A stretch of 64,000 bases of DNA, from assembly GCA_965204375.1 (NCBI GenBank), contig OZ241986.1:6276850-6340849 (forward strand), given 5' to 3'. The stretch comes from Candidatus Latescibacterota bacterium. GTDB taxonomy: Bacteria; Latescibacterota; UBA2968. Under the pieces are notes generated by a model, which did not search any database, had not been told where the DNA came from, and saw nothing but the letters and a program-made list of their open reading frames with translations. Below are positions 9,996-64,000 of the stretch, piece by piece; within the stretch, counting starts at the first letter, position 1; each line of letters opens with the position of its first letter. A program made the position numbers and the translations under genes.

Positions 9996-11119
9996 GTTCG
10001 TTTCCTTGTTATTTTGTTTCTTGCCAAACGCATCTCTTCAATTACTTCTGCATCGCGTTCACACAACAGTGCTTTATCAAGTGCCCGTCTCGCCCGCGCA
10101 CCCCCAATTTTGCCCAGTGCCCAGGCCGCGTGTTGTCGCACGAGTGGCTCGTCGTCTTTCAGGGCATTTGTCAGGGCGGGAACTTCAGATCTGCTTCCCA
10201 CATTGCCCAGTGCGACGGCAACGTTTCGCAATAATCCACGCCGTTTGGCGCGTTTGATCGGGCTGTTTTTGAATCGCTTTGAAAAAGCCTCTTGATCCAT
10301 GTGGAGCAAGTCGGTTAGCGCGGGCGCATTCAAACCCTCGCGCGCTTGAAAAGCATGTTCAGAGGTTGGTTTTGCGTGTTTGAGATTCCAGGGGCATACT
10401 TCCTGGCAGATATCACATCCAAAGACCCAGTTGCCTATATCCGATCTCAAATCTCGCGGAATAGCGCCTTTCATTTCAATGGTTAAATAGGAAATGCACC
10501 GCCTCGAATCCACGACATAAGGTTCTGGAATAGCATCTGTTGGACACGCATCCAGGCACTGCGTACAGGTGCCGCAATGATCGGGTTGTGGACGATCGAC
10601 TTTGAGTTCGAGATTCAGAATAATCTCGCCCAAAAAAAACCAGGAACCGCGGCCCTTGTCAATTAAGCAGGTGTGTTTCCCAAACCAGCCCAGCCCAGCT
10701 CGGGCGGCGAAATCGCGCTCCAGAACAGGTCCGGTATCGACATAGACCCGCCCCTCAGCAGAGGGTTCGATTTGCTGAATTTCAGATAGGAGTTGTAGCA
10801 AGCGGTCTTTCATGACGGTGTGATAATCATCGCCACGCGCATAGCGGGCAATCTGCCCTTTGGGCTCACCGCCATTATCAGACCCATCGGAACGGGGCTG
10901 ATAATTGAGACCCACGCACAGTACTGATTTGGCGTCTGGAAATATCTGGCGAATATCTGAACGCCGATCCAGATTGCGAGCCAAATACCCCATTTCCCCC
11001 GCGTAGCCCATTCCCAACCACTTTTGATAAAATGCCCAGTGTTGCGGGGGATCTACGGATGCAATCCCCACGGGATCAAATCCCAAACGCCGCGCTGCGT
11101 TCTTAATCCGGTGGGTCAT
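9992..11119 (-). CDS. queG: Epoxyqueuosine reductase
   Basis: IARYARGDDYH, VDTGPVLER, CGTCTQCLDACPT, FGCDICQEVCPWN, HEAT repeats; start uncertain (11119 or 11155). Confidence 0.95.
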   Translation of the reverse strand: MTHRIKNAARRLGFDPVGIASVDPPQHWAFYQKWLGMGYAGEMGYLARNLDRRSDIRQIFPDAKSVLCVGLNYQPRSDGSDNGGEPKGQIARYARGDDYHTVMKDRLLQLLSEIQQIEPSAEGRVYVDTGPVLERDFAARAGLGWFGKHTCLIDKGRGSWFFLGEIILNLELKVDRPQPDHCGTCTQCLDACPTDAIPEPYVVDSRRCISYLTIEMKGAIPRDLRSDIGNWVFGCDICQEVCPWNLKHAKPTSEHAFQAREGLNAPALTDLLHMDQEAFSKRFKNSPIKRAKRRGLLRNVAVALGNVGSRSEVPALTNALKDDEPLVRQHAAWALGKIGGARARRALDKALLCERDAEVIEEMRLARNKITRKRT

Positions 11120-17563: not shown

Positions 17564-18067
17564 TTATTTTTTTATGATCAAATTGAATCCTTCAATTTTT
17601 CGCACGGGCAAATTCCTGCCCAAAGACTCAGTCAAAAATTGAATCGATTGACCCAGGACGGGGTGTTTGAGGTCGGGTTTGAGGTCGCAAAGCGGCACCA
17701 GGACGAATGCGCGCTCGTGTAAGTGTGGGTGTGGCACCTGCAAGCCCGGCTGGTTGATGACGGCATCGCCATAGAGTAAAATATCGAGGTCCAGTGTGCG
17801 CGGGCCCCATCGCGTCTCGCGCAGACGACCAAATTTGCGCTCAATTGCCAATAGACAATTCAATAAACTTCGCGCAGAGAGACTGGTATGGACTTGCAGA
17901 ACTGCATTGAGAAAATACGGCTGGTCAACGACACCTATCGGAGCGGTTTCATAGACAGCAGAGGCAGCGATAATGGCGATTTCGGGTTTTGCATTTAGGA
18001 TACCCGTCGCGTCCTGGAGCGTTTTTTCTCGATCTCCCAAATTCGCGCCAATGCCAATGTAGATCAC
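17564..18067 (-). CDS. folK: 2-amino-4-hydroxy-6-hydroxymethyldihydropteridine diphosphokinase
   Basis: GIGANLGD, RWGPRTLDLDILL, PHPHLHERAFVL. Confidence 0.96.
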   Translation of the reverse strand: MIYIGIGANLGDREKTLQDATGILNAKPEIAIIAASAVYETAPIGVVDQPYFLNAVLQVHTSLSARSLLNCLLAIERKFGRLRETRWGPRTLDLDILLYGDAVINQPGLQVPHPHLHERAFVLVPLCDLKPDLKHPVLGQSIQFLTESLGRNLPVRKIEGFNLIIKK

Positions 18068-18423
18068 GTTTCACGTCTCACTTCAACTTCAACGCCATCG
18101 AAATTGACGGATACCGGTGGGTTGGGTTTGCGAACTCGCACGAGGAGTTTTGACAATCCCAATTTCGACTGCAAAACGTCAGCGATGCGGTCCGCCAGGG
18201 CTTCGACAAGGCCAAACCTTTCTCCTGTTACCACTTGCTCGACTATTTTACAGACGCGCGGATAATCTACGGACTGAGGCGTATTGTTGTGTGCAAATCC
18301 CCTGAAATTGCCATAGATTTCTACGTCAACTTCAAATTTTTGACCGAGTTTGGCCTCTTCTTCAAATAGTCCATGGTAGCCGTAAAAAGCCATATTTTTT
18401 ATTCTCAGCACGTCATTTGTCAT
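18064..18423 (-). CDS. folB: Dihydroneopterin aldolase
   Basis: FYGYHGLFEEE, GQKFEVD, VDY, VRKPNPP. Confidence 0.94.
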   Translation of the reverse strand: MTNDVLRIKNMAFYGYHGLFEEEAKLGQKFEVDVEIYGNFRGFAHNNTPQSVDYPRVCKIVEQVVTGERFGLVEALADRIADVLQSKLGLSKLLVRVRKPNPPVSVNFDGVEVEVRRET

Positions 18424-52063: not shown

Positions 52064-52100
52064 TGCCCAATCCTTGTTCGACTGAAATATCTCTAATGAG
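52064..52100 (-). repeat. Degenerate solitary CRISPR repeat
   Basis: TGCCCAATCCTTGTTCGACTGAAATATCTCTAATGAG; 29/37 identical to the 52412 repeat. Confidence 0.8.
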
Positions 52101-52411: not shown

Positions 52412-52520
52412 GTTTCAATCCTTGTTCTACTGGAATACCTCTATTGAGAAGCGGCAGGGCTACAAGAAGGGCGAAGTAAAGGGGTTTCAATCCTTATTCT
52501 GGTGGAATGTCCTTATGAGG
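52412..52520 (-). CRISPR. Detached repeat-spacer-repeat unit with degenerate repeats
   Basis: Repeats at 52412-52448 and 52484-52520 with a 35-nt spacer. Confidence 0.85.
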
Positions 52521-52713: not shown

Positions 52714-55700
52714 GTTTCAATCCTTGTTCTGGTGGAATACCTCTGAGAATATCAGGCAGTGGGCGCAGGAGCTTGGCGTCACTGTCGTTTCAATCCTTGT
52801 TCTGGTGGAATACCTCTGAGAATGAGATAGTGCGGGGCAGCCCCTCCAGGTCGCACTCCGTTTCAATCCTTGTTCTGGTGGAATACCTCTGAGAATTCCG
52901 CACGATCCTGTGTCCACATCTAAATAAGGAGGGTTTCAATCCTTGTTCTGGTGGAATACCTCTGAGAATTCCATTTTTAATCGCGATGCATGCAGCCAGA
53001 ATACCATGTTTCAATCCTTGTTGTGGTGGAATACCTCTATTGAGCCGTATTGCCCTGTTTGCTTGCCTTACGCGCATGCTGTTTCAATCCTTGTTGTGGT
53101 GGAATACCTCTATTGAGTGGATATTGCTGGTAGAGAGCTTGCACATCATCTTGTTTCAATCCTTGTTGTGGTGGAATACCTCTATTGAGACAGACGGGAG
53201 AGTAGAGGAATTTCCCCATGATGTGTTGCAGTTTCAATCCTTGTTGTGGTGGAATACCTCTATTGAGGGCGCCGGCAGTAGTCTTTTGTTTCTTTTTACC
53301 GGGTTTCAATCCTTGTTGTGGTGGAATACCTCTATTGAGCATTGCTCCATGCGTCGGAACCCGTCAATTTATCGGCACGTTTCAATCCTTGTTGTGGTGG
53401 AATACCTCTATTGAGTAACAAGCTCCAGCTGGAGTGGAAACAAGTTAAGGGTTTCAATCCTTGTTGTGGTGGAATACCTCTATTGAGGCAAGCTGGCCAG
53501 CGGCGGAAGCACCAGCAGCGAGTTTCAATCCTTGTTGTGGTGGAATACCTCTATTGAGGCGTGGGCGAACTCGACGAGAAAACGACAGAGCAGGAAGGTT
53601 TCAATCCTTGTTGTGGTGGAATACCTCTATTGAGTCATATCAACGGATCCTTCCAGAGCTACCACAGGCAAGTTTCAATCCTTGTTGTGGTGGAATACCT
53701 CTGAGAAGATGGGTCGTCTTTCGCCACGCGCCACAGGTTGTTATGTTTCAATCCTTGTTGTGGTGGAATACCTCTGAGAAGATCATCTGAGTCAACATAA
53801 ACATCGAGACAAAACCCGGTTTCAATCCTTGTTGTGGTGGAATACCTCTGAGAAGTTTCCGATAATAGTGCGGATATTCTGCGCCCTTGCAGTTTCAATC
53901 CTTGTTGTGGTGGAATACCTCTGAGAAGCACGTCACTAATCGTTTTTGTGATAAGACCGATATAGTTGTTTCAATCCTTGTTGTGGTGGAATACCTCTGA
54001 GAAGGCTTTGTTTCGCTTGCTGTGTAACGGAACAGGTATTGTTTCAATCCTTGTTGTGGTGGAATACCTCTGAGAAGCGTATGCGACAAGACATCTATAC
54101 GCGCCGTGACCGGTTTCAATCCTTGTTGTGGTGGAATACCTCTGAGAAGGAAACCCACCACACCAAGCCCATCACTCTTTCCATGTTTCAATCCTTGTTG
54201 TGGTGGAATACCTCTGAGAAGGGGGTGAAAGACTACATCACCGTCACTCATGCTCTTGTTTCAATCCTTGTTGTGGTGGAATACCTCTGAGAAGTCACCC
54301 GTTGGTGACAATAAATTTCGATGATGATGCAGTTTCAATCCTTGTTGTGGTGGAATACCTCTGAGAAGTGATGTAGTGGATGTAGTTGCACTCGGCGACT
54401 GCACGTTTCAATCCTTGTTGTGGTGGAATACCTCTGAGAAGATAGACATCGTTGGCTACATCATAATAATACCTCGCAGCGTTTCAATCCTTGTTGTGGT
54501 GGAATACCTCTGAGAAGCCAAGAGCGTCGGCGGCAGCCTGAGGAGGCCACTATGGTTTCAATCCTTGTTGTGGTGGAATACCTCTGAGAAGTGGATCCAC
54601 CACCCCATTTCGGGACCCACCCATCACGGGTTTCAATCCTTGTTGTGGTGGAATACCTCTGAGAAGTGCAGATGCGTTGCCGCCGTCCACGATGTACCGT
54701 CCGTTTCAATCCTTGTTGTGGTGGAATACCTCTGAGAAGTTACCGAAACGGTAGAGGGCAGGTCGGGTTTTTAATGTTTCAATCCTTGTTGTGGTGGAAT
54801 ACCTCTGAGAAGGGAAGGAATACCAAAAGCACTGGTAAGCCGACGGCGTTTCAATCCTTGTTGTGGTGGAATACCTCTGAGAAGAATACGAATACCTGTA
54901 CGCTCCTCAAATTCAACAGGTTTCAATCCTTGTTGTGGTGGAATACCTCTGAGAAGCGAGCCCACTGACCATAAGGCATATACGCATCATCGTTTCAATC
55001 CTTGTTGTGGTGGAATACCTCTGAGAAGAAGGTGAAGCCCCAGCCTTACCGTTCTTCTGATTGGTTTGCTGTTTCAATCCTTGTTGTGGTGGAATACCTC
55101 TGAGAAGTTTAGCGAAGCTGGTGTTATTATGATATTTATGATGTTTCAATCCTTGTTGTGGTGGAATACCTCTGAGAAGCAAGACCATTTTGACCGCTGG
55201 TGCTGCTCCGGCTGCGTTTCAATCCTTGTTGTGGTGGAATACCTCTGAGAAGATGGTGGGTGTTGCTCGCGCTAGGTATGGTCTCGACGCTGTTTCAATC
55301 CTTGTTGTGGTGGAATACCTCTGAGAAGCACCGGCCATTTTAAGATTCTCCTACATGAGAACCAGGTTTCAATCCTTGTTGTGGTGGAATACCTCTGAGA
55401 AGTCCCAAGAGATATGGACGCTGACGGACCTCGGGAGGTTTCAATCCTTGTTGTGGTGGAATACCTCTGAGAAGCGTGTGCTACCTACGGTCTCCATCGT
55501 CGCGAGCGTCGGAAGTTTCAATCCTTGTTGTGGTGGAATACCTCTGAGAAGTGAAGTGATGGACGATGCGCAGATCATATTTAACCTCGAGTTTCAATCC
55601 TTGTTGTGGTGGAATACCTCTGAGAAGAAGCTCGGTGCCTGCGCCCAGGTGGTTTATCCCTGTTTCAATCCTTGTTGTGGTGGAATACCTCTGAGAAGCC

Positions 55701-57022
55701 AAAGCAACCATCCAGCAGGCGAGCAGAATGATTACACACGGTTTCAATCCTTGTTGTGGTGGAATACCTCTGAGAAGCAAAAACGAATATGTCAACTTTT
55801 GGATCCATCTGGTTTCAATCCTTGTTGTGGTGGAATACCTCTGAGAAGCACAAGGGTATTCGTATCACCAGGCGCACCACCTTGTTTCAATCCTTGTTGT
55901 GGTGGAATACCTCTGAGAAGCCAGATCGTCCTGTTCGGGCGTGTACATTGTGATAGTTTCAATCCTTGTTGTGGTGGAATACCTCTGAGAAGCAAGACGA
56001 GGAAGCCTTTTCGCGCGATATGCTACACGGTTTCAATCCTTGTTGTGGTGGAATACCTCTGAGAAGATTGACTGAAGGGTTGCCTTTCAGGATGTACGGC
56101 GGTTTCAATCCTTGTTGTGGTGGAATACCTCTGAGAAGAGTGAAGGGCGCAAAGGATAATAGCACCGCACACACGTTTCAATCCTTGTTGTGGTGGAATA
56201 CCTCTGAGAAGCGCTTAGAAATGGTCGTCGCGTGATCGCGCTGGCAGCGTTTCAATCCTTGTTGTGGTGGAATACCTCTGAGAAGTGGTTTTGGAGAATT
56301 TTTATAGGAGAATTGTAATGAAGTTTCAATCCTTGTTGTGGTGGAATACCTCTGAGAAGTATATGCAGAAGGCCAGGAATCCACCCCACCACCCAAGTTT
56401 CAATCCTTGTTGTGGTGGAATACCTCTGAGAAGTTCGCGCAGGACCTCCAGGCGCTCGCCAGGATCGTGTTTCAATCCTTGTTGTGGTGGAATACCTCTG
56501 AGAAGAATAGATTTCGGATCTGCAAAAACTTCTGGATTGTCGTTTCAATCCTTGTTGTGGTGGAATACCTCTGAGAAGAAAACCAGTCCACGAATAGCAT
56601 GCTGGCGACGCATCTGTTTCAATCCTTGTTGTGGTGGAATACCTCTGAGAAGGAAGATGAGGAGGACGTGCTTCGCGCGTACGGGAATCTGTTTCAATCC
56701 TTGTTGTGGTGGAATACCTCTGAGAAGCTCTTGCGTGATCTGTAAGATGCGGGCTAATCGCTGTTTCAATCCTTGTTGTGGTGGAATACCTCTGAGAAGA
56801 CTCGTTTTCGTGGACGCACAAAAAAAGCCCCAGCAGTGTTTCAATCCTTGTTGTGGTGGAATACCTCTGAGAAGTTGAGGTACGACTTTGCTTTTTTCAT
56901 AATCTTACCCCCGTTTCAATCCTTGTTGTGGTGGAATACCTCTGAGAAGCCGCGGATTTCGGGCGGACTTTCACGTATCGCTATGGTTTCAATCCTTGTT
57001 GTGGTGGAATACCTCTGAGAAG
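52714..57022 (-). CRISPR. CRISPR array, 59 repeats of 37 bp / 58 spacers (hand count)
   Basis: Consensus on minus strand CTTCTCAGAGGTATTCCACCACAACAAGGATTGAAAC (ATTGAAAC 3' end); spacers ~34-42 nt; three repeat-variant blocks. Confidence 0.98.
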
Positions 57023-57193
57023 CGCATTTTATGTATATCGTTTGAAACAACAACAGGTTACGCGAATTGACTGACGGACAAAATCTCGGTTTGATATGTC
57101 TTTTTTACTTCTAAACGCAGACATTTTGCTCTCCTTTGCAGAATGGAATTTTTCCAACGTATTGATTTTCAATGGATTACACCATTGTTGTTC
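57023..57193 (-). promoter_or_regulatory. CRISPR leader
   Basis: AT-rich non-coding region between cas4 and the first conserved repeat. Confidence 0.75.
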
Positions 57194-57790
57194 TTATACG
57201 CAAATATTTTTATAGCAACAGTCACTACACTTGGCGCGGTGAGGTGTTTTTTTGGGCAGTCGCCCGGTTTGAATAATGTCGAGAATTTCAGCCACAATTT
57301 GTTGTGCGGTGATTTCTTCTGCCTCTCCTATCGGAACTTCTGCCAGGCGACTTCCACCGCGAATATATGCAATATATCCACGGGACACGGACTTTTGATA
57401 GGCTTCGCGAGCCAGCAGCCCGTAGAGTATGATTTGAATGCGATGGGTTTTGAAAGCGTGCTCGCGATAGGGTGAATATTTGTAATCCAGAGGCGCGAGA
57501 CTGCCATCTTGCAGGGTCAAGACTTCATCTACAATCCCACGCACACCCAGGCTGGGCGATGCCAGGTACACATTGAGGTCGCGATCAACAACGCCGATTT
57601 TTTTGCGAAGATAAAATCGGTTCTCTTTTTCCCGGCGTTTGTGAACTTCGCGGCCTTTGAGTACTTTGAAGCGGCGATCTTCAAACTGCGGGATATTGAG
57701 CACATTCATATAGTAGGTAAAACGCGGACAATAGATATGCTCAATCACCTCCGATGGCGTGATCATGATGGTTGTTTCGGTATCGCTCAC
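57194..57790 (-). CDS. cas4: CRISPR-associated exonuclease Cas4
   Basis: YCPR, GIVDEV, PLDYK, QIILYG, C-terminal CSDCCYKNIC. Confidence 0.93.
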   Translation of the reverse strand: MSDTETTIMITPSEVIEHIYCPRFTYYMNVLNIPQFEDRRFKVLKGREVHKRREKENRFYLRKKIGVVDRDLNVYLASPSLGVRGIVDEVLTLQDGSLAPLDYKYSPYREHAFKTHRIQIILYGLLAREAYQKSVSRGYIAYIRGGSRLAEVPIGEAEEITAQQIVAEILDIIQTGRLPKKTPHRAKCSDCCYKNICV

Positions 57791-58092
57791 AGGAACATGC
57801 TCCTCACGTCATCCGTAACCATTTTCTGGTCAAATGCCTGGCCCTGCAGGATCACTTTGCGAAAATCCATCATGCACATGGGAAAGATGTACACGCTGTC
57901 GGTTTCCTCATCAATCTGGTCTTCAATACGCATTGAAAGTTCGTCCAGGCGGTTGTGTTTGACCGTGCCGAGAAAGACGGATTTTTGAACGCGATAAAGT
58001 CCAGCTTCTTTACAGGCTTTGACCACATGTCGGCGGCTTTTGTCGTTAGAAATGTCGTAGAGTATCCAGGTGAGCGATTCATCGGATTTCAT
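57787..58092 (-). CDS. cas2: CRISPR-associated Cas2
   Basis: ILYDISNDKSR, RVQKSVFLG, DSVYIFP. Confidence 0.93.
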   Translation of the reverse strand: MKSDESLTWILYDISNDKSRRHVVKACKEAGLYRVQKSVFLGTVKHNRLDELSMRIEDQIDEETDSVYIFPMCMMDFRKVILQGQAFDQKMVTDDVRSMFL

Positions 58093-58099
58093 GGGCTTG

Positions 58100-59113
58100 T
58101 TACTCCTGTTGTGTGTCTTGTGGCAGCAGGTCATTTGCGATGCGGTGCAGATCGAATTGGATGCTGTCTCGCCGCGTGATGTTGCGCCCTCGATAGCGAA
58201 TGGCTGTGTCGAGATAGTCGGTAAATGCCTGGATGAGTATGGCTTTGCCCTCTTTGTTCAGGGTGAGGCCATTTTTTAATTTGTCGAATTGGTCTTGTTT
58301 AATTTTTCGCGCTGAAAAGAGGCCGAGAACGGTTTCGTCAGCCCAGATGCGATATTGTTCGATGAGATCAAAAATGAGAGAAGGTTTGTTGTAGTGATCG
58401 GTGTGGATAAAGCCGATGTAGGGATCGAGTCCCGAGAGCAAACAGGCGCGTTCAACGATGCCGTAAAGCATGCCGTAGCTGTAATTGAGCAGACAGTTGA
58501 AAGGGTCTTTGCCCGGGTTGCGGCTGCGACCTTCAAAGCGGTGATGGACGGGTAATAGCAGGGATACCGCCGCCCAATAGGTGCGCCCAGCGCGACCTTC
58601 AAGACCGAGCAAGCTCTGGCGCATGGTGTCGATACTGCTTGTCTCCGTATCAGCACATGTATTGCTTGCGAGGTCCTGCGTTTGCTCTTTGAGGGTTTTT
58701 AGACTGCCAATGGCTTCGGTAAGTGGTGCTGAAAGCCGCGTGCGACGGTCGCGCATGCGCGTGAGCAATGCAATCTGATTGTCGAATTTGCGCCCGATCC
58801 AGCCGAGGGCGAGTTGAACGCCGAGGTCGGTTTGCGCTGCTGCGAGTTGCATGCGGCGAATGGCTGTTGTAGAACCCGGTCGTCCGTGCCATACGCGCCC
58901 AAAGGGGTCGCCGTATTTGTCGAGAAAGAGGATGTCGATATTCTTCTCCACGGCAAGTTGAACCGCATCTGACGAAAACGCGGCTCCCGTTGAGATGAGA
59001 ATAGAGCGCACTTTGCGAGCGGAAATTTCAGTCGATTGGTCCTTCACTTTGATCTGAAACAATTCTCCCCGCCGACTCAAATATGCGCCATAAGTGTTGA
59101 GTACGAGTTGCAA
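58100..59113 (-). CDS. cas1: CRISPR-associated Cas1
   Basis: AGGAG RBS + TTG start; LEGRAGRTYW, NCLLNYSYGMLY, GLDPYIGFIH, LIFDLIEQYR. Confidence 0.95.
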   Translation of the reverse strand: MQLVLNTYGAYLSRRGELFQIKVKDQSTEISARKVRSILISTGAAFSSDAVQLAVEKNIDILFLDKYGDPFGRVWHGRPGSTTAIRRMQLAAAQTDLGVQLALGWIGRKFDNQIALLTRMRDRRTRLSAPLTEAIGSLKTLKEQTQDLASNTCADTETSSIDTMRQSLLGLEGRAGRTYWAAVSLLLPVHHRFEGRSRNPGKDPFNCLLNYSYGMLYGIVERACLLSGLDPYIGFIHTDHYNKPSLIFDLIEQYRIWADETVLGLFSARKIKQDQFDKLKNGLTLNKEGKAILIQAFTDYLDTAIRYRGRNITRRDSIQFDLHRIANDLLPQDTQQE

Positions 59114-59197
59114 AATGTTCTCCTGGGGATAATACCGAAGCACACCTGTTCATCACAAGCGTTCACAAAACAAATTTGATGGTGTAAAACTTGAAAC

Positions 59198-59225
59198 TTG
59201 ACATTTTTATGGTATTGGTTATAAT
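59198..59225 (+). promoter_or_regulatory. Consensus sigma-70 promoter, antisense to the cas operon
   Basis: TTGACA-16 nt-TATAAT, both hexamers perfect. Confidence 0.8.
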
Positions 59226-60154
59226 AGAATTGCCAGCGGACGAAATTCGGCTCCATAGCCGTGTGATTGCCGGGCTGCGGTTCGCGTAATCCTATATCCC
59301 TGGCTTTTTTCATTTTCTCGCCACACCAAAGCCGCTGCATTGAGCGGCTTTTTTTGTGTGTAATACACGCCATAGCCTGCCTCTCGTCTGTCATCGATAT
59401 CGTGTACGATCCGAAAAGCCCGCCACAGATACTTCACATACCGATCTTCTCCGCGTTCATAGAGCCTTTGTAAAGCCCAGACGAAATAATCCACAGCTTG
59501 TAAACCACCTTGCTCTTGCGGGGTTGACACAGATACTTTTAAGACCCCATCGCCTTCCGCGTTCTGTTGTTTGACAAAACGGTCTTGGGCAGTTTCAAGT
59601 GCCTGACGCAGGGCAGCAGTGCGGTTTGATCGACCTCGTTTTGAAAAGATAATATTATATCTACTGTTCTGATGTAGTCTTTCTTTGAACAGACGCCCTA
59701 TCAGATAATCGTAAAGTTCATTGGGGTGATAGCGATAGGCAGGAGTGCTTTCATTGCGTTGGCGAACATAGTCCAGTACGCGCCACTTGTCAGCAACCAC
59801 AGCAAAGAAGCGCAATCCTTCAGTGTCGCGTAAAATCCGGAAAACATCTCGTCGCACTTCGGGCAAATCGTCTTTGGCATGAAAGGCAATAGCTGTTTTT
59901 CGGACCTTTGCTTGCATGGATGGCACATCTTTGAAATATGAATCGTTCACCAGCCGCCCCCTCAGGTTGTCTAAGGCATGGTGTAATGTAGCTGGATCAG
60001 GCACATCCAATAGGCCGAGTATGAAAAATCGAGAACACCCTGACGTGCCGATCAGGACCTTTCCTTTGCTGGAGAACAACGTGCTATCTCCGCCTTCATC
60101 TATAAAATAGTAACGGATTGAAGTCTGTTTCTTTTGCAACGGCTTATTCTCCAT
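59219..60154 (-). CDS. DUF3800 domain protein (RNase H-like acidic motifs)
   Basis: YFIDEGGD, FFILG, FHAKDD, GLQAVDYFVWAL. Confidence 0.8.
   Translation of the reverse strand: MENKPLQKKQTSIRYYFIDEGGDSTLFSSKGKVLIGTSGCSRFFILGLLDVPDPATLHHALDNLRGRLVNDSYFKDVPSMQAKVRKTAIAFHAKDDLPEVRRDVFRILRDTEGLRFFAVVADKWRVLDYVRQRNESTPAYRYHPNELYDYLIGRLFKERLHQNSRYNIIFSKRGRSNRTAALRQALETAQDRFVKQQNAEGDGVLKVSVSTPQEQGGLQAVDYFVWALQRLYERGEDRYVKYLWRAFRIVHDIDDRREAGYGVYYTQKKPLNAAALVWRENEKSQGYRITRTAARQSHGYGAEFRPLAILL
59232..59310 (+). ncRNA. Structured small RNA, candidate DUF3800-associated RNA
   Basis: Starts 7 nt after TATAAT; 5' GCCAG pairs with 3' CTGGC, followed by T6; two internal hairpins. Confidence 0.7.
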
Positions 60155-60207
60155 AAAACGCCCTGTTCAGTACTTTGTCTCTCTCACTGACATAAAAGCC
60201 CTCGCTG

Positions 60208-60288
60208 TCAATTTCCCCTCATCTTAACCTGAAACAATTCCCCTCGCCGACTCAAATACGCGCCGTAAGTGTTGAGCACGAGTTGCAT
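60208..60288 (-). pseudogene. cas1 5' stub (26 aa)
   Basis: MQLVLNTYGAYLSRRGELFQVKMRGN* duplicates the cas1 N-terminus. Confidence 0.85.
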
Positions 60289-60293
60289 TTTAT

Positions 60294-60325
60294 GTTTAGT
60301 CCTTGTTCTGTTGGAGTGCCTTTTT
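60294..60325 (-). repeat. Degenerate array-type repeat overlapping the cas1-stub RBS
   Basis: + strand GTTTAGTCCTTGTTCTGTTGGAGTGCCT vs array GTTTCAATCCTTGTTCTGGTGGAATACCT. Confidence 0.7.
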
Positions 60326-60335
60326 AAAGGCCGTC

Positions 60336-60364
60336 TTGCTCTCCACACACGTGGGGATGAACCG
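60336..60364 (+). repeat. Solitary type I-E-like CRISPR repeat
   Basis: TTGCTCTCCACACACGTGGGGATGAACCG, 29 nt, with I-E hairpin and ATGAACCG 3' end. Confidence 0.7.
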
Positions 60365-60412
60365 AGTTTCCATCCTTATTTTTTTGGAGCAATTCTCGAT
60401 ATAGAAGTGACA

Positions 60413-62719
60413 TCAGAACATCCTCAGAGCATCATCTTGCTTTATAAATTGACCGCCCAAATGATCGTCATATTCCATTTCACAAAATACGATGTCCCCA
60501 TTTTCTGGATCTCTGAATTCATTCTCTTTAACATACCACGCGGGCATTTTGAGTTCATATTCGCGTCTGTCTCTGGGGCTTTCACTCTCTAAGACTTCAT
60601 CACGAAAATCTAACGGGATAACACTTAGCTGAATATATGTTTCTAAACGGGTAAGACGTTGTTCATCATCTTTTATAGGATCTAACATACCGAGAAATTT
60701 TCTTTGGTCATCGTCAACCAGGCTGATAGAATGCTTAAAACCCTCATGGACATCTATACGCTGGTTTTCGTACACTTTTTCGACAATATCTAAAAGTTGT
60801 TGCTCCGTAATATCATGGCCTTGATATTTCGAAAAAATATCAAAAGAACGTTTCAAAAGGCGTTCTTCGGGTTTTTGTTCAGTGCGTATATCATCAAAGT
60901 AAATGCGGTCTGATCCCGGTCCTGGCTGAAAAATGATCACTTGACCATTACGCTCTCGTTTGCGGTTGATTCGGCCTGCGCGTTGTGCTACTGCGTCTGG
61001 CGGCGCACACTCCGTAAACAAAATGTCGAAATTGATATCTAAAGCGACTTCAACTACTTGCGTTGCAATAACCAGGGAAGGATTTTCTTCAAGAATTTTC
61101 TTTTCCTTTTTTTTCCGATCTCTCAAGATAAACTTTGAGTGATAACAAATGGGATCAAAGTCTGCCAACGCTTGTGCAATTTCCTGACAACGTGCAACTG
61201 TATTTACTACAACGAGAACACGTTTGCCTTTGTCAGTCTGGTTGCGAATTTCTTGAAGATGGTTCAACAAATCTTCATCAACGGTTTGATAACGACTGCG
61301 TGCGGCTTGAAGCAATTCCTGATCGCGGACGATTTCTACCGGTGCAGATTTCTCAAGCAAAGATTGAAACATCTCAACCAGAGAACTGGGAAATGTCGCG
61401 CTCATAATCATAAACCTTGCTCCAACCGCTGCAAGTTGCTCAATCGCTTTGCATATCAAGCCCGTGGTATAGGGATCGTAGGAATGCACCTCATCCAACA
61501 CGATTGCAGAATCCTGGGCCGCAAATGTTTTTAACGGCCAACGACCACTATGAAAAAGCGTGGTTAGTAATTGATCCACTGTACCTACTGTAACGGGAGG
61601 AAAAAAGTGGCGATTGAATAACAAATTTCCGTACAGCTTAGATTCTCGTCCTGTACTCTCTTGATTTTCTTCTTTACGCAAAATGAGGTCGGCCATTGAA
61701 TGCGTCAAGCCAACGTGATGGTTATGAGTCGAGAAGAATTTTTCCATACGGTCATGAAGGCTGTTGGCTGTCACCATAGTGGGAAGCAAGTATAAAATTT
61801 TGCTCACATCCCTTTGCTTGATTTGGTTGAGTGCCCACAAAAGGGCAGCTTCTGTTTTTCCACTTCCCGTAGGTGCGACAGCAATAATGTGTCCCTTTAT
61901 TTTTCCACAATTTTCCTGAAATGCTCTAAATCCAGCATAAGATCCTCCGTCCTCTTCAACTTTTCGCTGCAAATATGGTGCGACCAAATCAGGTCCAACC
62001 AGAACATTTGTCGCATAATCTGGATCATTCGACGACGCACACCAATCAGCCGTCATAAGCAATCCCTTCATCAGAACGAATAACTCGCGTGCAGATGAAT
62101 AGTCAGAAACGTATTTATGTAGTTCCCTTGCGAAATTGCATACGGACTGCTTGTGTGCAACTTGAAAACATTTTTCAAAATCAATTTTAGGGTACGGAAC
62201 GCCGTAATCATCAAAGATTTTTTGTGCAACGCGCTTTCCCTCCGCTAAACTGCCCGGTTTCCATTTCAGGCTTTCGGGATTATTTCGCTCGCGTTCAAAA
62301 CGACTGAGGTCTGTATCAACTGTTTTATGATGTCCCAAAACGGCCATGGCTTCCAAAGGAATATGCGGATTTTGCTTGAGCAAAACACCTGTTTCTCTGT
62401 TGAGGCATAAAATAGCAGACCTTACGAAAGCAACTGATGCATATTCATGCCTAAAATTGGCAACCATAGCACGATGGCGTTCAGCATTCGACACAGCACG
62501 CATCATGCGTTGAAAGTTGGCGGACAACTTACCCATATCGTGAAGCGCGACCGTGAGCAGAGACCGGATAAGAAACCGGTCTCTATCCACTTGATGGCGT
62601 TGACAGATACGTTCAATGAGTGCCGCATGTCTCTCTATTAAGTTTTTCCAGGCCAAATAAACCTGCCAGACATGCTGTTCATAACATTCATTGGGACGGC
62701 ACTTAGCAAGAAAAATCAT
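60413..62719 (-). CDS. cas3: CRISPR-associated helicase/nuclease Cas3
   Basis: HD domain (LHDMGK), APTGSGKT, LDEVH, MSAT, ATQVVEVALDI, QRAGRINR. Confidence 0.95.
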   Translation of the reverse strand: MIFLAKCRPNECYEQHVWQVYLAWKNLIERHAALIERICQRHQVDRDRFLIRSLLTVALHDMGKLSANFQRMMRAVSNAERHRAMVANFRHEYASVAFVRSAILCLNRETGVLLKQNPHIPLEAMAVLGHHKTVDTDLSRFERERNNPESLKWKPGSLAEGKRVAQKIFDDYGVPYPKIDFEKCFQVAHKQSVCNFARELHKYVSDYSSARELFVLMKGLLMTADWCASSNDPDYATNVLVGPDLVAPYLQRKVEEDGGSYAGFRAFQENCGKIKGHIIAVAPTGSGKTEAALLWALNQIKQRDVSKILYLLPTMVTANSLHDRMEKFFSTHNHHVGLTHSMADLILRKEENQESTGRESKLYGNLLFNRHFFPPVTVGTVDQLLTTLFHSGRWPLKTFAAQDSAIVLDEVHSYDPYTTGLICKAIEQLAAVGARFMIMSATFPSSLVEMFQSLLEKSAPVEIVRDQELLQAARSRYQTVDEDLLNHLQEIRNQTDKGKRVLVVVNTVARCQEIAQALADFDPICYHSKFILRDRKKKEKKILEENPSLVIATQVVEVALDINFDILFTECAPPDAVAQRAGRINRKRERNGQVIIFQPGPGSDRIYFDDIRTEQKPEERLLKRSFDIFSKYQGHDITEQQLLDIVEKVYENQRIDVHEGFKHSISLVDDDQRKFLGMLDPIKDDEQRLTRLETYIQLSVIPLDFRDEVLESESPRDRREYELKMPAWYVKENEFRDPENGDIVFCEMEYDDHLGGQFIKQDDALRMF

Positions 62720-62721
62720 CG

Positions 62722-62752
62722 GTTTTCATCCTTGTTCTGCACAGGTGCTTTT
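62722..62752 (-). repeat. Degenerate array-type repeat overlapping the cas3 RBS
   Basis: + strand GTTTTCATCCTTGTTCTG vs array GTTTCAATCCTTGTTCTG (16/18). Confidence 0.6.
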
Positions 62753-63457
62753 TCAACGCAAAACCACCTGATAGTCATTGATCACAAATCCATCAACTGG
62801 CTCTGAAAGCGAGATTTTATTGCCCACAAACGTAAAGGGTTCGCGTGTTTGTACGGTTCGTCTATCTCCATCAAAAGAAAACGATACAGGCAGATTCGCC
62901 GTTGAGGTCGGGCGAATCTTTTGGGTCATAGGCAAGTCCAAAATACTTTCATCAGGCTTATAGAGTTGGGCAATATCGCCAGGCACCACGCAGTTCTCCA
63001 GGTTTTGTAGAGGTATGGGATCGGTCTCCAGAACTTCGATATTTCGCAGGTAAATCAAACTGTCGCTATGCCCGGCAGTAAGTGCATATACCGGATCATG
63101 AAACCCATTAGCAACTACATCAGCCGCTTCTTTTGACTGCGTGCCGTAAACAACCAGACAGGTTAAATCCACGCGATATTCTCGAATCAGAACATCCGAA
63201 ATTGTTTCCTTGCTGTTTACCTTGCGATATTTCCACAAATCTCGAAACTCCCCACGATCATGCCCCGCAACTCCAACGGATATGCTATTTTCTACAACAT
63301 AGCTTTGGGCAGACTCCATATCCAGACCGAGAGCAGCACCGAGCAAACCCACACAGGTAGTATATGGCGGCAATGCCAGAGTCTTGTGGAATGTATGGGT
63401 TTCCGCAGTTCTAAATGACGCGGTTTCAGCATACATCTCAAGGGCGACGAGAAACAT
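62753..63457 (-). CDS. cas5: CRISPR-associated Cas5 (type I-B-like)
   Basis: ASFRTAET..FHKTLALPPYTTCVGLLGAALG. Confidence 0.88.
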   Translation of the reverse strand: MFLVALEMYAETASFRTAETHTFHKTLALPPYTTCVGLLGAALGLDMESAQSYVVENSISVGVAGHDRGEFRDLWKYRKVNSKETISDVLIREYRVDLTCLVVYGTQSKEAADVVANGFHDPVYALTAGHSDSLIYLRNIEVLETDPIPLQNLENCVVPGDIAQLYKPDESILDLPMTQKIRPTSTANLPVSFSFDGDRRTVQTREPFTFVGNKISLSEPVDGFVINDYQVVLR

Positions 63458-63460
63458 AAT

Positions 63461-64000
63461 TTATGCTCCGTTCTGACCGTAACAAGACTGGACCCATTCT
63501 TTAATTTGTGAAAAAGCATCACCGACTGTTTTGGTCTCGTCGGGAGTGCCTTCAAATAAACCCGTACGGGAACCGAACACCGATCCGAGCACAACATTTT
63601 TATGATCTTCTAACACCTCTTCAAGCATCGCGCTACTTACTATCCTGCCTTGCACTTGAACGGATTCGAGAAAAATTGGGGCTTTAACCGTTGTAATAGC
63701 CGCAGCGACAAATTTGGGACTCAGATCCGCCAAGAATCGACTTTGACGGCCAGAACTCCACAAATTTTGCAATGCATTGAGCAGGGCTTCTACGCGCTCA
63801 GATTTTTCCTTATTATCTATGTCATTCTCAAATTCTTCGCCAGAACCAATGCGATCCAATTCGATCAAAATTGTACCGCGATAAAGCCCGCCATGTATTT
63901 CAGTTTCAAAGATGTTGGGATTTCCTCCCGCTTCTACACCCATATAATTGGTTCCAAAGTCCAGATCACCCTGGTAGGCACCTTGAGCGACCAAAGGTGA
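63461..64000 (-). CDS. cas7: CRISPR-associated Cas7 (Cst2/DevR-like), 5'-truncated by the window
   Basis: NIFETEIH.GLYRGTILIELDRIG, GRQSRFLADLSPKF; directly upstream of cas5. Confidence 0.82.
   Translation of the reverse strand, partial: SPLVAQGAYQGDLDFGTNYMGVEAGGNPNIFETEIHGGLYRGTILIELDRIGSGEEFENDIDNKEKSERVEALLNALQNLWSSGRQSRFLADLSPKFVAAAITTVKAPIFLESVQVQGRIVSSAMLEEVLEDHKNVVLGSVFGSRTGLFEGTPDETKTVGDAFSQIKEWVQSCYGQNGA

Follow-up and report, generated by a model that had tools for sequence, protein, structure and literature searches.

Gene content of the locus and its array

The 64 000-nt window (the whole stretch of DNA that was analyzed) contains, on the minus strand, a type I-B (Cas6b) CRISPR-cas locus of a Latescibacterota MAG. 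The type I-B gene set with Cas6b is present: cas6b, cas7, cas5, cas3 and cas1-cas2-cas4, along with an array of 37-nt repeats. At the end of the window lies the 3′ part of a Cst2/DevR-type cas7 (63461..64000, minus strand; TIGR02585, E 2.2e-29), a gene cut by the contig end; it is followed on the same strand by cas5 (62753..63457; NCBIfam and Pfam Cas5 matches) and cas3 (60413..62719, start codon at 62719-62717), which codes for a 768-aa protein with HD nuclease and helicase (NCBIfam cas3_core, E 1.5e-76; cas3_HD, E 4.4e-18). At the point where the contig end cuts cas7 the relatives have ~1.05 kb of additional DNA, and about 2.1 kb separates their cas6 from the conserved cas7 part. The cas6b gene is situated at L037:1024-1683 (minus strand; Pfam Cas6b_N and Cas6b_C; PDB 4z7k 'Cas6b', E 1.8e-31); a 340-residue fragment at L037:1-1020, also from a gene cut by a contig end, produced no Pfam or NCBIfam match in a search for the cas8b signature.

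The adaptation genes, all on the minus strand, are cas4 (57194-57790), cas2 (57787-58134) and a working cas1 (58100..59113; TIGR00287, E 4.1e-84 for the longer ORF), which has a TTG start at 59113 and its own Shine-Dalgarno sequence (SD); other cas genes of the operon are preceded by SDs as well. Between the working cas1 and a cas1 stub located next to cas3, a DUF3800-family gene is inserted (59219..60154, minus strand; Pfam PF12686, E 4.7e-09); L013 has it too, whereas L012 and L014-L018 lack it.

The array (52714..57022, minus strand) is transcribed in the direction of the cas genes. Its 59 repeats, each 37 nt long, comprise 46 of the main form, 9 of a variant that has four changes and 4 trailer repeats (52714-52969), the latter carrying the trailer variant quoted in an earlier, sequence-only reading of this DNA. 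Spacers are 34-42 nt long and the array period is 71-79 nt. The repeat's score against Rfam CRISPR-DR7, 31.2 bits, does not reach the gathering score of 37. That reading also saw in the repeat-like sites a retained short hairpin, which we could not support: the folding energy of the repeat is -1.6 kcal/mol, a value equalled or bettered by 195 of 200 shuffled versions.

For comparison we used eight family loci (this genome and seven relatives), four of which, this genome, L012, L013 and L014, define the genus level, as well as 12 further distant loci. The 8-nt tag at the 3′ end of the repeat is invariant in the arrays of all eight family loci.

Repeat copies at gene junctions

Three strings quoted by the sequence-only reading were all found on the minus strand: before cas3, before the cas1 stub and in the trailer repeats. 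Outside the array we saw three sense-strand repeat copies, at the cas5|cas3 and cas3|cas1 junctions. With identity to the repeat of 21-27 of 37 bases and with the tag altered in all three, they do not look like functional array repeats; judged by sequence, they belong with the repeat-like elements already known from cas loci.

The copy before cas3, psiR(cas3) (62722..62758, minus strand), is a repeat-length unit of 37 nt, in register with the repeat, that covers the last codon and the stop codon of cas5; its 3′ end is 2 nt before the cas3 start. Its last 18 bases are identical to the trailer repeat at 16 positions, while its 5′ half is unlike the repeat; overall identity is 21-22/37 to array repeats and 26/37 to psiR2, a copy described below. 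It is solitary, with no second match of the family profile within 100 nt. Aligned with the relatives, psiR(cas3) corresponds to a 37-nt gap in L012 and L014, a two-base microhomology leaving 2 nt of uncertainty in its register; in L013 it is present with 2 of the 37 bases substituted. By the family profile alone it stays at noise level (E 3.4 and 8.3). However, in a search of the 6.34-Mb genome on both strands it was the only place outside the array with no more than two mismatches to the last 18 bases of the repeat; three mismatches were seen at eight further places. By our own arithmetic, with equal base frequencies assumed, ~0.26 matches with up to two mismatches are expected genome-wide. 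Judging by the 16/18 match, the position and the 37-nt insertion relative to relatives, psiR(cas3) is real.

The cas3|cas1 element, which is wholly on the minus strand, is a mini-array of a degenerate repeat, a spacer-like stretch and another degenerate repeat. The first repeat, psiR1 (60366..60407), begins 5 nt past the cas3 stop codon; seven of its last eight bases are identical to the tag. Aligned with array repeats over 42-43 columns, it has 26-27 bases in common with them (family profile, E 0.7); it has nine mismatches to the 29-mer repeat core, a level reached by eight matches genome-wide; this one is 73 nt from psiR2. The spacer-like stretch, psiS (60330..60365), is 36 nt long, similar in length to array spacers. 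The second repeat, psiR2 (60294..60329), is the copy that has decayed least: it agrees with the repeat at 27 of 37 bases, though the tag at its 3′ end has changed bases and one base missing. Among non-array matches of the repeat profile genome-wide it ranks second (E 1.1, 12.5 bits), and it has E 0.012 with the family profile over 97 kb of cas-side DNA.

Five nucleotides after psiR2 the cas1 stub starts (60208..60288, minus strand; start codon 60288-60286). Its 26 codons and stop duplicate the N-terminus of the working cas1 (83% identity in tblastn of Cas1 residues 1-24), and L012 has an intact cas1 in its place; by this comparison, the stub is a remnant of the original cas1 5′ end. Both psiR2 in this genome and the cas1 copy in L013 precede a dead stub. 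The sequence-only reading had missed psiR1, hence the mini-array form, and the fact that psiR2 now serves only a dead stub.

Probable ribosome-binding role of the copies

The 16S rRNA of this genome has an anti-SD tail complementary to the five-base purine core of the repeat. Within -20..-5 of crude ORF starts the core occurs in 12.3% of cases as against 0.9% inside ORFs, a 14-fold enrichment. In psiR(cas3) this core (62729..62733, minus strand) is 9 nt before the cas3 start codon; in psiR2 (60300-60304) it is 11 nt before the stub start. Short spacers before the two starts contain no other SD-like site. Each insertion puts an SD-like core 9-11 nt before a start, and so makes it the only recognizable ribosome-binding site there. 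Spacing, complementarity and enrichment together bear out, at sequence level, the earlier proposal that the repeat core acts as the SD of both genes; it is plausible that repeat copies supply the ribosome-binding sites of cas3 and the cas1 stub. Such an overlap of repeat-like elements with ribosome-binding sites appears to be unreported.

One could argue that an ordinary A-rich SD context merely resembles the 3′ half of the repeat. The SD core alone is indeed common upstream of genes, as the enrichment figures demonstrate, and the cas3 copy does not rise above noise in the profile search. Against this stand the uniqueness of that copy among non-array 18-base matches, its sense orientation inside the cas operon, its being a discrete 37-nt insertion and the 27/37 identity of psiR2. 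Also, an 11-mer shared by the copies and the repeat occurs six times in the window, always on the minus strand (the four trailer repeats and the cas3 and stub sites), while shuffles gave a mean of 0.05 and a maximum of two occurrences, none of 100 reaching six. We consider chance resemblance highly improbable.

Related loci and the origin of the copies

The cas3 copy is present in two of the eight family loci (this genome and L013, two of four at the genus level), and a copy before cas1 in four of eight, all of one genus: as a mini-array in this genome and L012, as a single copy in L013 and L014. The four more distant family loci have neither copy; in all four the junctions are overlapping stop and start codons. 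Among the 12 distant loci no repeat copies were seen. Conservation of these two elements in related loci, which the sequence-only reading proposed to survey, is partial within the genus and was not seen beyond it. By this pattern the copies are recent insertions, made at cas5|cas3 and cas3|cas1 junctions that formerly overlapped.

The copies have not clearly diverged more slowly than neutral sites, the neutral rate being estimated from 4-fold sites of cas3 (0.133 between this genome and L013, 0.107 between this genome and L012). In addition to the two differences in psiR(cas3) from L013, psiR1 and psiS together have 9 substitutions and 1 indel in ~78 nt in comparison with L012. In psiR2 with its 5-nt spacer only 1 of 41 bases differs from L012 (binomial P about 0.06, our own arithmetic). 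The earlier suggestion that the copies would covary with the resident array repeat did not hold: the L013 copy is closer to the array repeat of L014 than to that of L013.

These observations fit the view that the copies are tolerated relics, left behind at gene junctions by recombination or by insertion of repeat units, with only the SD selected and Cas6b having no useful action on them. Such relics would persist because the repeat brings an SD at a workable distance, replacing lost translational coupling. The sporadic and recent spread, near-neutral divergence of psiR1 and psiS, the tag mutated in every copy, the absence of covariation, the dead stub behind psiR2 and the repeat-unlike 5′ half of the cas3 copy all argue for it. 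On the other hand, psiR2 and its spacer have hardly changed between two genomes, degenerate copies are known as Cas6 substrates (PMC8501985), and a repeat-derived site before cas6 is kept despite divergence (see below). We regard the relic view as quite possible, if somewhat doubtful, and as a close rival to the Cas6b cleavage discussed below.

Repeat-derived sites before cas6

A third repeat-derived ribosome site precedes cas6 in seven of the eight loci, with 14-18 of 22 repeat-core bases kept; at the genus level, to which this comparison is confined, L014 differs from the other three loci at 31-44% of 4-fold sites. The conservation of the cas6 site suggests that selection acts on more than the SD in at least one of these elements. 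Every family-profile match with E<1 lies immediately upstream of cas6 or cas1, in sense orientation.

In two to three relatives the cas6 site belongs to a CreR-like self-targeting mini-array. In L015 and L016 it is the 3′ repeat of such a mini-array, whose guide mismatches its target within the first 17 positions at 6 and 12 alone, the 15 non-flipped positions all matching; the seed and PAM match the target promoter. Release of the guide from this mini-array would need the same SD-severing cut.

Could the cas3|cas1 mini-array act likewise? Here psiR1-psiS-psiR2 would give a CreA/CreR-type RNA guiding Cascade to partly matching DNA and repressing transcription, with the SD overlap at cas1 being secondary. 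The architecture is suitable (42 + 36 + 36 nt, 73 nt between the copies, within the range of the array period); the first copy retains the tag and the second the 3′-handle part, the CreA/CreR pattern (10.1101/2023.03.10.532045), even though the tag of psiR2 itself is altered. The mini-array is shared with L012, the first 11 bases of psiS being identical, and the same family has the convincing self-targeting mini-array before cas6 in L015 and L016. No psiS target was found, however. The 20-kb loci of this genome and of L012 contain no site with at least 9 of 10 seed positions; 25 full-seed sites elsewhere in the genome all lack the T-T-purine motif of the family's cas6 targets, and three that were inspected fall in ordinary coding ORFs. 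The motif-plus-seed pattern has no exact match in this genome or in G074, a viral collection gave no matches, and cas-gene and associated toxin-gene promoters showed no seed and PAM match. Furthermore, psiS differs from L012 at 4 of 36 positions, about the neutral rate; L013 and L014 have a single copy only; and the solitary cas3 copy is not explicable as a crRNA-like regulator. We therefore consider this explanation unlikely.

A possible Cas6b switch

How type I systems keep Cas3 and the adaptation proteins low relative to Cascade is partly understood; the known routes are transcriptional, via regulator proteins and crRNA-like guides. The Cas6b of M. maripaludis is said to read a short A-rich motif adjoining the cut.

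The Cas6b homologue from that species cuts the 37-nt repeat into 29 + 8 nt, a single repeat being sufficient in vitro (PMC3479195), so a cut at the same position here would fall inside the SD, as the sequence-only reading had proposed and as the homology supports. The predicted cuts are between 62730 and 62729 in psiR(cas3) and between 60301 and 60300 in psiR2; in both copies 11-12 bases across the cut are identical to the repeat. A type I-B Cas6 still cuts highly divergent repeat copies (11-16 of 30 bases identical to each other), and the 3′ handle stays Cas6-bound (PMC8501985).

On these analogies, binding and cleavage of the copies by Cas6b, severing the SD, is our leading mechanism, held with something short of even confidence. 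The copies would be transcribed as part of the operon mRNA and recognized by Cas6b in the way that haloarchaeal Cas6 recognizes strongly degenerate repeats. Binding and cutting 8 nt before the 3′ end of a copy (7 nt in psiR2), inside the SD, would divide the polycistronic RNA into Cascade, cas3 and adaptation parts and strip the SD from cas3, originally from cas1 too. More Cas6b would then mean less Cas3 and Cas1 relative to Cascade, although in this genome the cas1 arm would now act on a dead stub only. A Cas6-operated brake on expression is plausible from the sequence. The family context also speaks for it, namely the sense-strand placement of profile matches before cas6 or cas1, the kept cas6 site and the mini-arrays of L015 and L016. 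Against it speak the presence of the cas3 copy in only two of eight loci, the repeat-unlike 5′ half and noise-level profile score of that copy, tag changes in every copy, divergence close to neutral, the poor fit of the L013 copy to its own array repeat and the dead stubs in this genome and L013. The RNA-library data consulted were assembled contigs of relatives, in which no RNA ends are visible.

One could speculate further that repeat-derived ribosome sites in general are Cas6b switches: the cut that frees a CreR-like guide in the cas6 5′ UTR would fall between SD and start, and the same cassette would have been transplanted before cas3 and cas1, so that the level of Cas6b would set the Cascade:Cas3:adaptation ratio post-transcriptionally, atop RNA-guided transcriptional autorepression. 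In this full form the idea seems to us rather unlikely.

If Cas6b does cut copies that double as ribosome sites, the enzyme that processes crRNA would itself provide a natural layer of post-transcriptional control. Should the copies be relics, an origin of solitary repeats is still visible in the locus, exactly one repeat length being inserted at a formerly overlapping junction, and their persistence would be understandable, as the repeat carries a ready-made SD. Eight loci with dated states make the Cas6b question directly testable.

Comparison with known systems

The closest parallel is to the CreA and CreR elements, reportedly described by Li in 2021. As in those mini-CRISPRs, degenerate repeats occur apart from the array within a type I-B cas locus, in the same orientation (PMC8501985; 10.1101/2023.03.10.532045; 10.1101/2023.03.03.530964); two of them flank a spacer-sized stretch, the first keeping the 8-nt tag and the second the 3′-handle part, and Cas6-dependent processing would be expected by analogy. 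The literature on this class places type I-B crRNA-like elements preferentially near cas6. In contrast to CreA/CreR, no partly matching target was found for the cas3|cas1 mini-array, and the cas3 element is single-copy; also, unlike CreA/CreR as described, the copies here abut start codons and carry the SD. The words 'Shine-Dalgarno' and 'ribosome' do not occur in the text of Shmakov et al. (10.1101/2023.03.03.530964). In the host mini-arrays reported for type I-B, the targeted site lies between mini-array and cas6; here, by contrast, the end of the second copy is 1 nt from the start of cas6.

The M. maripaludis and C. thermocellum Cas6b systems (PMC3479195; PDB 4z7k/4z7l) have a homologous protein, a 37-nt unstructured repeat and the same 8-nt tag; the proposed substrates here differ in being degenerate copies in mRNA 5′ regions. 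Phage Racrs (PMC10651486) are likewise solitary repeat mimics expected to engage Cas proteins, but they are viral and inhibit the host system, while the copies described here are chromosomal, in an operon and next to start codons.

Finally, Cas6f/Csy4 sites have been engineered into 5′ UTRs (PMC13478208), and no natural Cas6 example of such translational control was found in the literature searched. In the logic of the proposed feedback the locus would share with these constructs, and with autogenous control, a site for the system's own protein that overlaps an operon ribosome-binding site, the effect in our case being a predicted one. Autogenous translational control at operon ribosome sites is familiar from ribosomal proteins and T4 gp32. 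If Cas6b acts as we propose, the repeat copies would be a natural counterpart of engineered Cas6/Csy4 insulators.

Organization of the cas locus

The window forms the final 64 kb of a single 6.34-Mb contig, whose source organism falls in one genus with three Latescibacterota MAGs. In transcription order, all on the minus strand, we found cas7, of which the contig end leaves the 3′ part (63461-64000), followed by cas5 (62753-63457); then cas3 (60413-62719), a spacer of 124 nt, a cas1 stub of 26 codons (60208-60288), a DUF3800-family gene (59219-60154), and the working cas1, with a TTG start at 59113, followed by cas2 and cas4. Behind cas4 a leader precedes the CRISPR array, whose 59 repeats run from 57022 down to 52714 with a period of 71-79 nt. 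The array repeat is 37 nt long and occurs in three variants: 46 copies of the main form, 9 with four changes and 4 trailer repeats (the last of the array) with two changes. Two more decayed repeats lie past the trailer, at 52412-52448 (after a 265-nt gap) and 52068-52100. The opposite end of the contig (L037) carries the 5′ part of the large-subunit gene (L037:1-1020) and cas6 (L037:1024-1683, minus), which encodes a Cas6b (Pfam Cas6b_N and Cas6b_C; PDB 4z7k, E 1.8e-31).

The cas8-cas7 region is thus interrupted by the contig ends (window 64000 and L037:1). In all seven related loci, the parts that become adjacent on joining the two ends are ∼1.05-1.1 kb apart, and about 1 kb of this region seems to be missing from the assembly; a 519-residue ‘cas8-cas7 fusion’ ORF across the joined ends was dismissed as a joining artefact. 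Among the sequencing runs with DNA resembling the window, three RNA-library runs (X1-X3) match it with small shares; X4-X8 are DNA runs. Most Logan contigs of X1-X4 are 90-95% alike to the window and therefore derive from relatives. Run X4 covers the whole stretch with a single letter different, and its near-identical DNA contig (one letter different) extends ∼3 kb past the window end; X4 is probably the source DNA, and thus not independent support.

Some further elements were seen in this genome. A gene for a regulator containing HTH, WYL and WCX domains (L037:3063-4064, minus) is located upstream of the cas operon, with homologues upstream of cas6 in three of the related loci (L012, L015 and L016); between this regulator and cas6 the own genome holds two copies of a ∼190-nt segment, each with the start of a small plus-strand ORF. 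There is a second Cas3 homologue (L011, G000:C1:179540-181351; 32% identity, E 2.2e-67), and an isolated 29-base site, G000:C1:2558392-2558420, differs from the repeat core at 7 positions and is distant from every array examined.

Repeat copies at ribosome-binding sites

A sequence-only reading of this DNA had proposed that repeat copies form the ribosome-binding sites of cas3 and of the original cas1 start, and the three strings it quoted were all found as given. An 11-mer common to the copies occurs six times in the window (shuffle mean 0.05): in the four trailer repeats, at 62729-62739 before cas3 and at 60300-60310 before the cas1 stub. The cas3 copy is the sole non-array site in the whole genome within two mismatches of the last 18 bases of the repeat, and the stub copy, psiR2 (60294-60329), is the second-best non-array match of the repeat profile. 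That the resemblance arose by chance is very improbable in our estimate. The purine core of the repeat stands 9 nt before the start codon of cas3 and 11 nt before that of the stub, the 3′ tail of 16S rRNA carries the matching anti-Shine-Dalgarno (anti-SD), and the five-base core is present in 12.3% of the −20 to −5 windows of 5930 crude ORF starts vs 0.9% inside ORFs; the proposal therefore holds at the sequence level.

A short hairpin, said to be retained in the copies, was not borne out: the repeat itself is unstructured, its −1.6 kcal/mol being equalled or bettered by 195 of 200 shuffles, and none of the copies folds significantly. An Rfam search at E ≤ 10 gave no match on the copies, and a promoter/terminator consensus scan gave nothing above shuffle expectation near them. 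Through two changes in its tag (the 8-nt 3′ end of the repeat), the cas3 copy acquires a start codon at 62727-62729 (minus), out of frame and 10 nt before the cas3 start; the first base of this codon coincides exactly with that of the predicted 3′ cleavage product.

Cas6b of Methanococcus maripaludis cuts a 37-nt repeat into 29 + 8 nt, one repeat being enough (PMC3479195); haloarchaeal I-B Cas6 is described as cutting repeat copies with as few as 11-16 of 30 bases in common, and as staying on the 3′ handle (PMC8501985). Both the cas3 copy and psiR2 have kept intact the 11-12 bases that span the predicted cut. On these grounds we rank first, albeit tentatively and short of an even chance, that Cas6b may bind the operon mRNA and cut it at the repeat copies. 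Such a cut would remove the SD, and it would part the Cascade, cas3 and adaptation segments of the mRNA.

A mini-array between cas3 and cas1

The sequence-only reading overlooked a more degenerate copy, psiR1 (60366-60407), that begins 5 nt past the cas3 stop codon. Downstream of it, at a distance of 73 nt (vs an array period of 71-79 nt), follows psiR2, and the 36 nt between the two copies (psiS) have the length of a spacer; thus the cas3-cas1 spacer is, by its anatomy, a mini-array. Seven of the eight tag bases are retained in psiR1, and the 3′-handle part in psiR2. Compared with the loci that have a single copy, the spacer is longer by ∼78-79 nt, matched by the length of psiR1 plus psiS (78 nt). 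We considered whether a solitary repeat had gained a spacer by normal acquisition, and set this origin aside, psiR1 and psiR2 sharing only 27 of 42 aligned positions.

This anatomy would fit a crRNA-like guide made from the mini-array, and such a guide could coexist with Cas6b cleavage of the mRNA, as both may hold. We nevertheless consider a guide unlikely, as no target was found in the own genome, in that of relative L012 or in a viral collection (0 matches of psiS). In the locus scan and the genome-wide seed scan the three best sites all fell within long coding ORFs, and scans of the own locus and of the L012 locus gave no site with at least 9 of 10 seed positions. A motif-plus-seed pattern had 0 exact matches in the own genome and in a relative's genome (G074); with one mismatch allowed there were 19 and 14 matches, respectively, vs 4 and 5 for a reversed control pattern, none of them convincing. 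The longest other match by blastn-short was 14 nt. A CreTA-type toxin beside the mini-array was considered and dropped, because in L012 the mini-array directly precedes an intact cas1 and because no target was found.

An 11-base string after psiR2 (60289-60299, minus; it includes the stub start codon) equals the last leader bases before the first repeat (57023-57033). Behind psiR2 of L012 the string is present as well, and conservation of the leader end extends to L012, L013 and L018.

Repeat copies in related loci

A Cas3 search over 168 genomes of the phylum yielded seven orthologous loci, L012-L018, with Cas3 identities of 92% (L012 and L013), 79% (L014) and 58-61% (L015-L018). Gene order is the same in the own locus and all seven relatives; the junctions differ. 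L015-L018 have no repeat copy between cas5 and cas3, nor at cas3/cas1, where stop and start codons overlap. In L014 and L012 stop and start overlap at cas5/cas3; at cas3/cas1, L014 has a single degenerate repeat abutting the cas1 start, and L012 the mini-array before intact cas1. L013 carries a 37-nt copy at cas5/cas3 and, behind cas3, a single degenerate repeat, a 28-nt stub and the DUF3800 gene; in the own genome there are the 37-nt copy and the mini-array before the dead stub. With the cas1 copy standing before a dead stub in both the own genome and L013, the proposed tuning of Cas1 would, if any, be past, or confined to L012 and L014.

The cas3 copy is thus present in two of the eight family loci only. 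Aligned with L012 and L014 it forms a 37-nt gap, which is exactly the repeat length and, but for a two-base microhomology, falls in repeat register. It is closer to psiR2 (26/37) than to the array repeat (21-22/37), which suggests that it was copied from the psiR2 element. Twelve more distant metagenome loci (Cas3 identity 40-42%) showed no repeat-like sequence at their cas3 junctions; an initial metagenome scan with a single protein as query had found nothing. Given the absence from these 12 loci and from L015-L018, the copies are, as far as these junctions tell, recent insertions limited to one genus and not an ancient feature of the subtype.

The 5′ end of cas1 holds the inserted DUF3800-family gene (59114-60288), and the first ∼72 nt of cas1 are doubled, in stub and working gene, with several mostly synonymous differences. 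In L013 the DUF3800 gene is in two tblastn pieces, suggesting a frameshift, and the stub is shorter, its start codon lost. Other, unrelated contigs of X3 and X4 contain further copies of a ∼53-nt stretch (59258-59310); in the window this stretch adjoins a strong hairpin with a T-run (59328-59351, plus) and a 12/12 consensus promoter match (59198-59225, plus). The segment 59258-59351, where the DUF3800 gene has its 3′ end, could represent a small dispersed repeat.

Divergence of the copies

Divergence at 4-fold sites of cas3 is 0.107 from L012 and 0.133 from L013. Own genome and L013 differ by 2 substitutions over the 37 nt of the cas3 copy. Against L012, psiR1 plus psiS have 9 substitutions and 1 indel in ∼78 nt, about the neutral rate (psiS alone, 4 of 36), and psiR2 with the 5-nt spacer differs at 1 of 41 positions (binomial P ∼0.06, our own arithmetic). 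Among the copies compared, only this last figure hints at constraint. One could also see the copies as tolerated relics in which the SD is the sole selected part; we rank this reading second, close behind cleavage by Cas6b.

The copies do not track the resident array, since the single L013 copy has more in common with the array repeat of L014 than with that of L013 itself. In L013, L017 and L018 the trailer variant is the main array repeat; the match of the copies to it is most simply explained if this variant is the older state.

A repeat-derived region upstream of cas6

In seven of the eight family loci, a 22-base stretch that ends at the cas6 SD shares 14-18 positions with the locus's own repeat core, and 6-7 unrelated bases then lead to the start codon. 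The cas6 5′ region of the own genome (L037:1684-1747, minus) has 14 of the 22 repeat-core bases, ending 7 nt before the start, and carries the cas6 SD; a tag-bearing partial copy, its last tag base changed, lies 55 nt upstream. Five family loci have such a partial copy with the 8-nt tag (last base changed) 55-57 nt upstream. Matches of a family profile with E < 1 were confined to the cas6 sites and the cas1 copies, all on the sense strand.

The stretch after the tag has candidate targets in the relatives. In L015 and L016 (guide parts 18039-18088 and 1866-1915) its match to a site lying 96 nt upstream of it (18168-18184 and 1773-1789, respectively) covers 15 of 15 non-flipped positions among the first 17, the only mismatches being those at positions 6 and 12. 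T-T-A stands just before this site; adjacent upstream are a consensus −35, a 17-nt spacer and a −10 hexamer with 4/6 matches. The site is identical between both loci, and the flanks are different. L013 has a 12/12 candidate target match beside a similar promoter, and L012 a 9/10 seed match. The first 11 bases after the own tag recur exactly within cas3 (61997-62007, minus); ∼0.04 such matches are expected per 20-kb locus (our own arithmetic), and since the T-T-purine motif of the relatives' targets is absent, this match is probably due to chance. In L012 the promoter-proximal candidate target and the cas6-upstream mini-array are separated by an ORF of ∼190 codons (∼10140-10705, minus). In L028, a locus with 41% Cas3 identity, a solitary repeat copy (L028:3055-3087, E 1.8e-05) occurs ∼4 kb upstream of cas3, its tag showing the last-base change that also marks the cas6-upstream copies in the family.

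The layout upstream of cas6 is, to judge from its parts, the CreR/crRNA-like autorepression design of type I-B. Maturation of the guide would need a Cas6b cut inside the cas6 SD, and we regard this case as the strongest, if indirect, support for ribosome sites operated by Cas6. It also shows that a putative repeat-derived ribosome site can be under long-term selection.

Comparison with known systems

Standalone repeat-like sequences and mini-arrays in cas loci are already known (Shmakov et al., 10.1101/2023.03.03.530964; 10.1101/2023.03.10.532045). A search of the full-text literature, with word searches of both preprints, supplements excluded (that of Shmakov et al. may list similar loci), gave no repeat copies forming ribosome-binding sites of cas genes and no natural control by Cas6 at such sites. 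Repeat copies doubling as putative cas-gene ribosome-binding sites would thus be new within a known class of repeat-like elements. CreA and CreR are described with the same tag/3′-handle pattern as psiR1 and psiR2 (10.1101/2023.03.10.532045). CreR/crRNA-like autorepression near cas6 is known for type I-B (Shmakov et al., 10.1101/2023.03.03.530964); here, however, the 3′ repeat of the candidate guide doubles as the cas6 ribosome-binding site.
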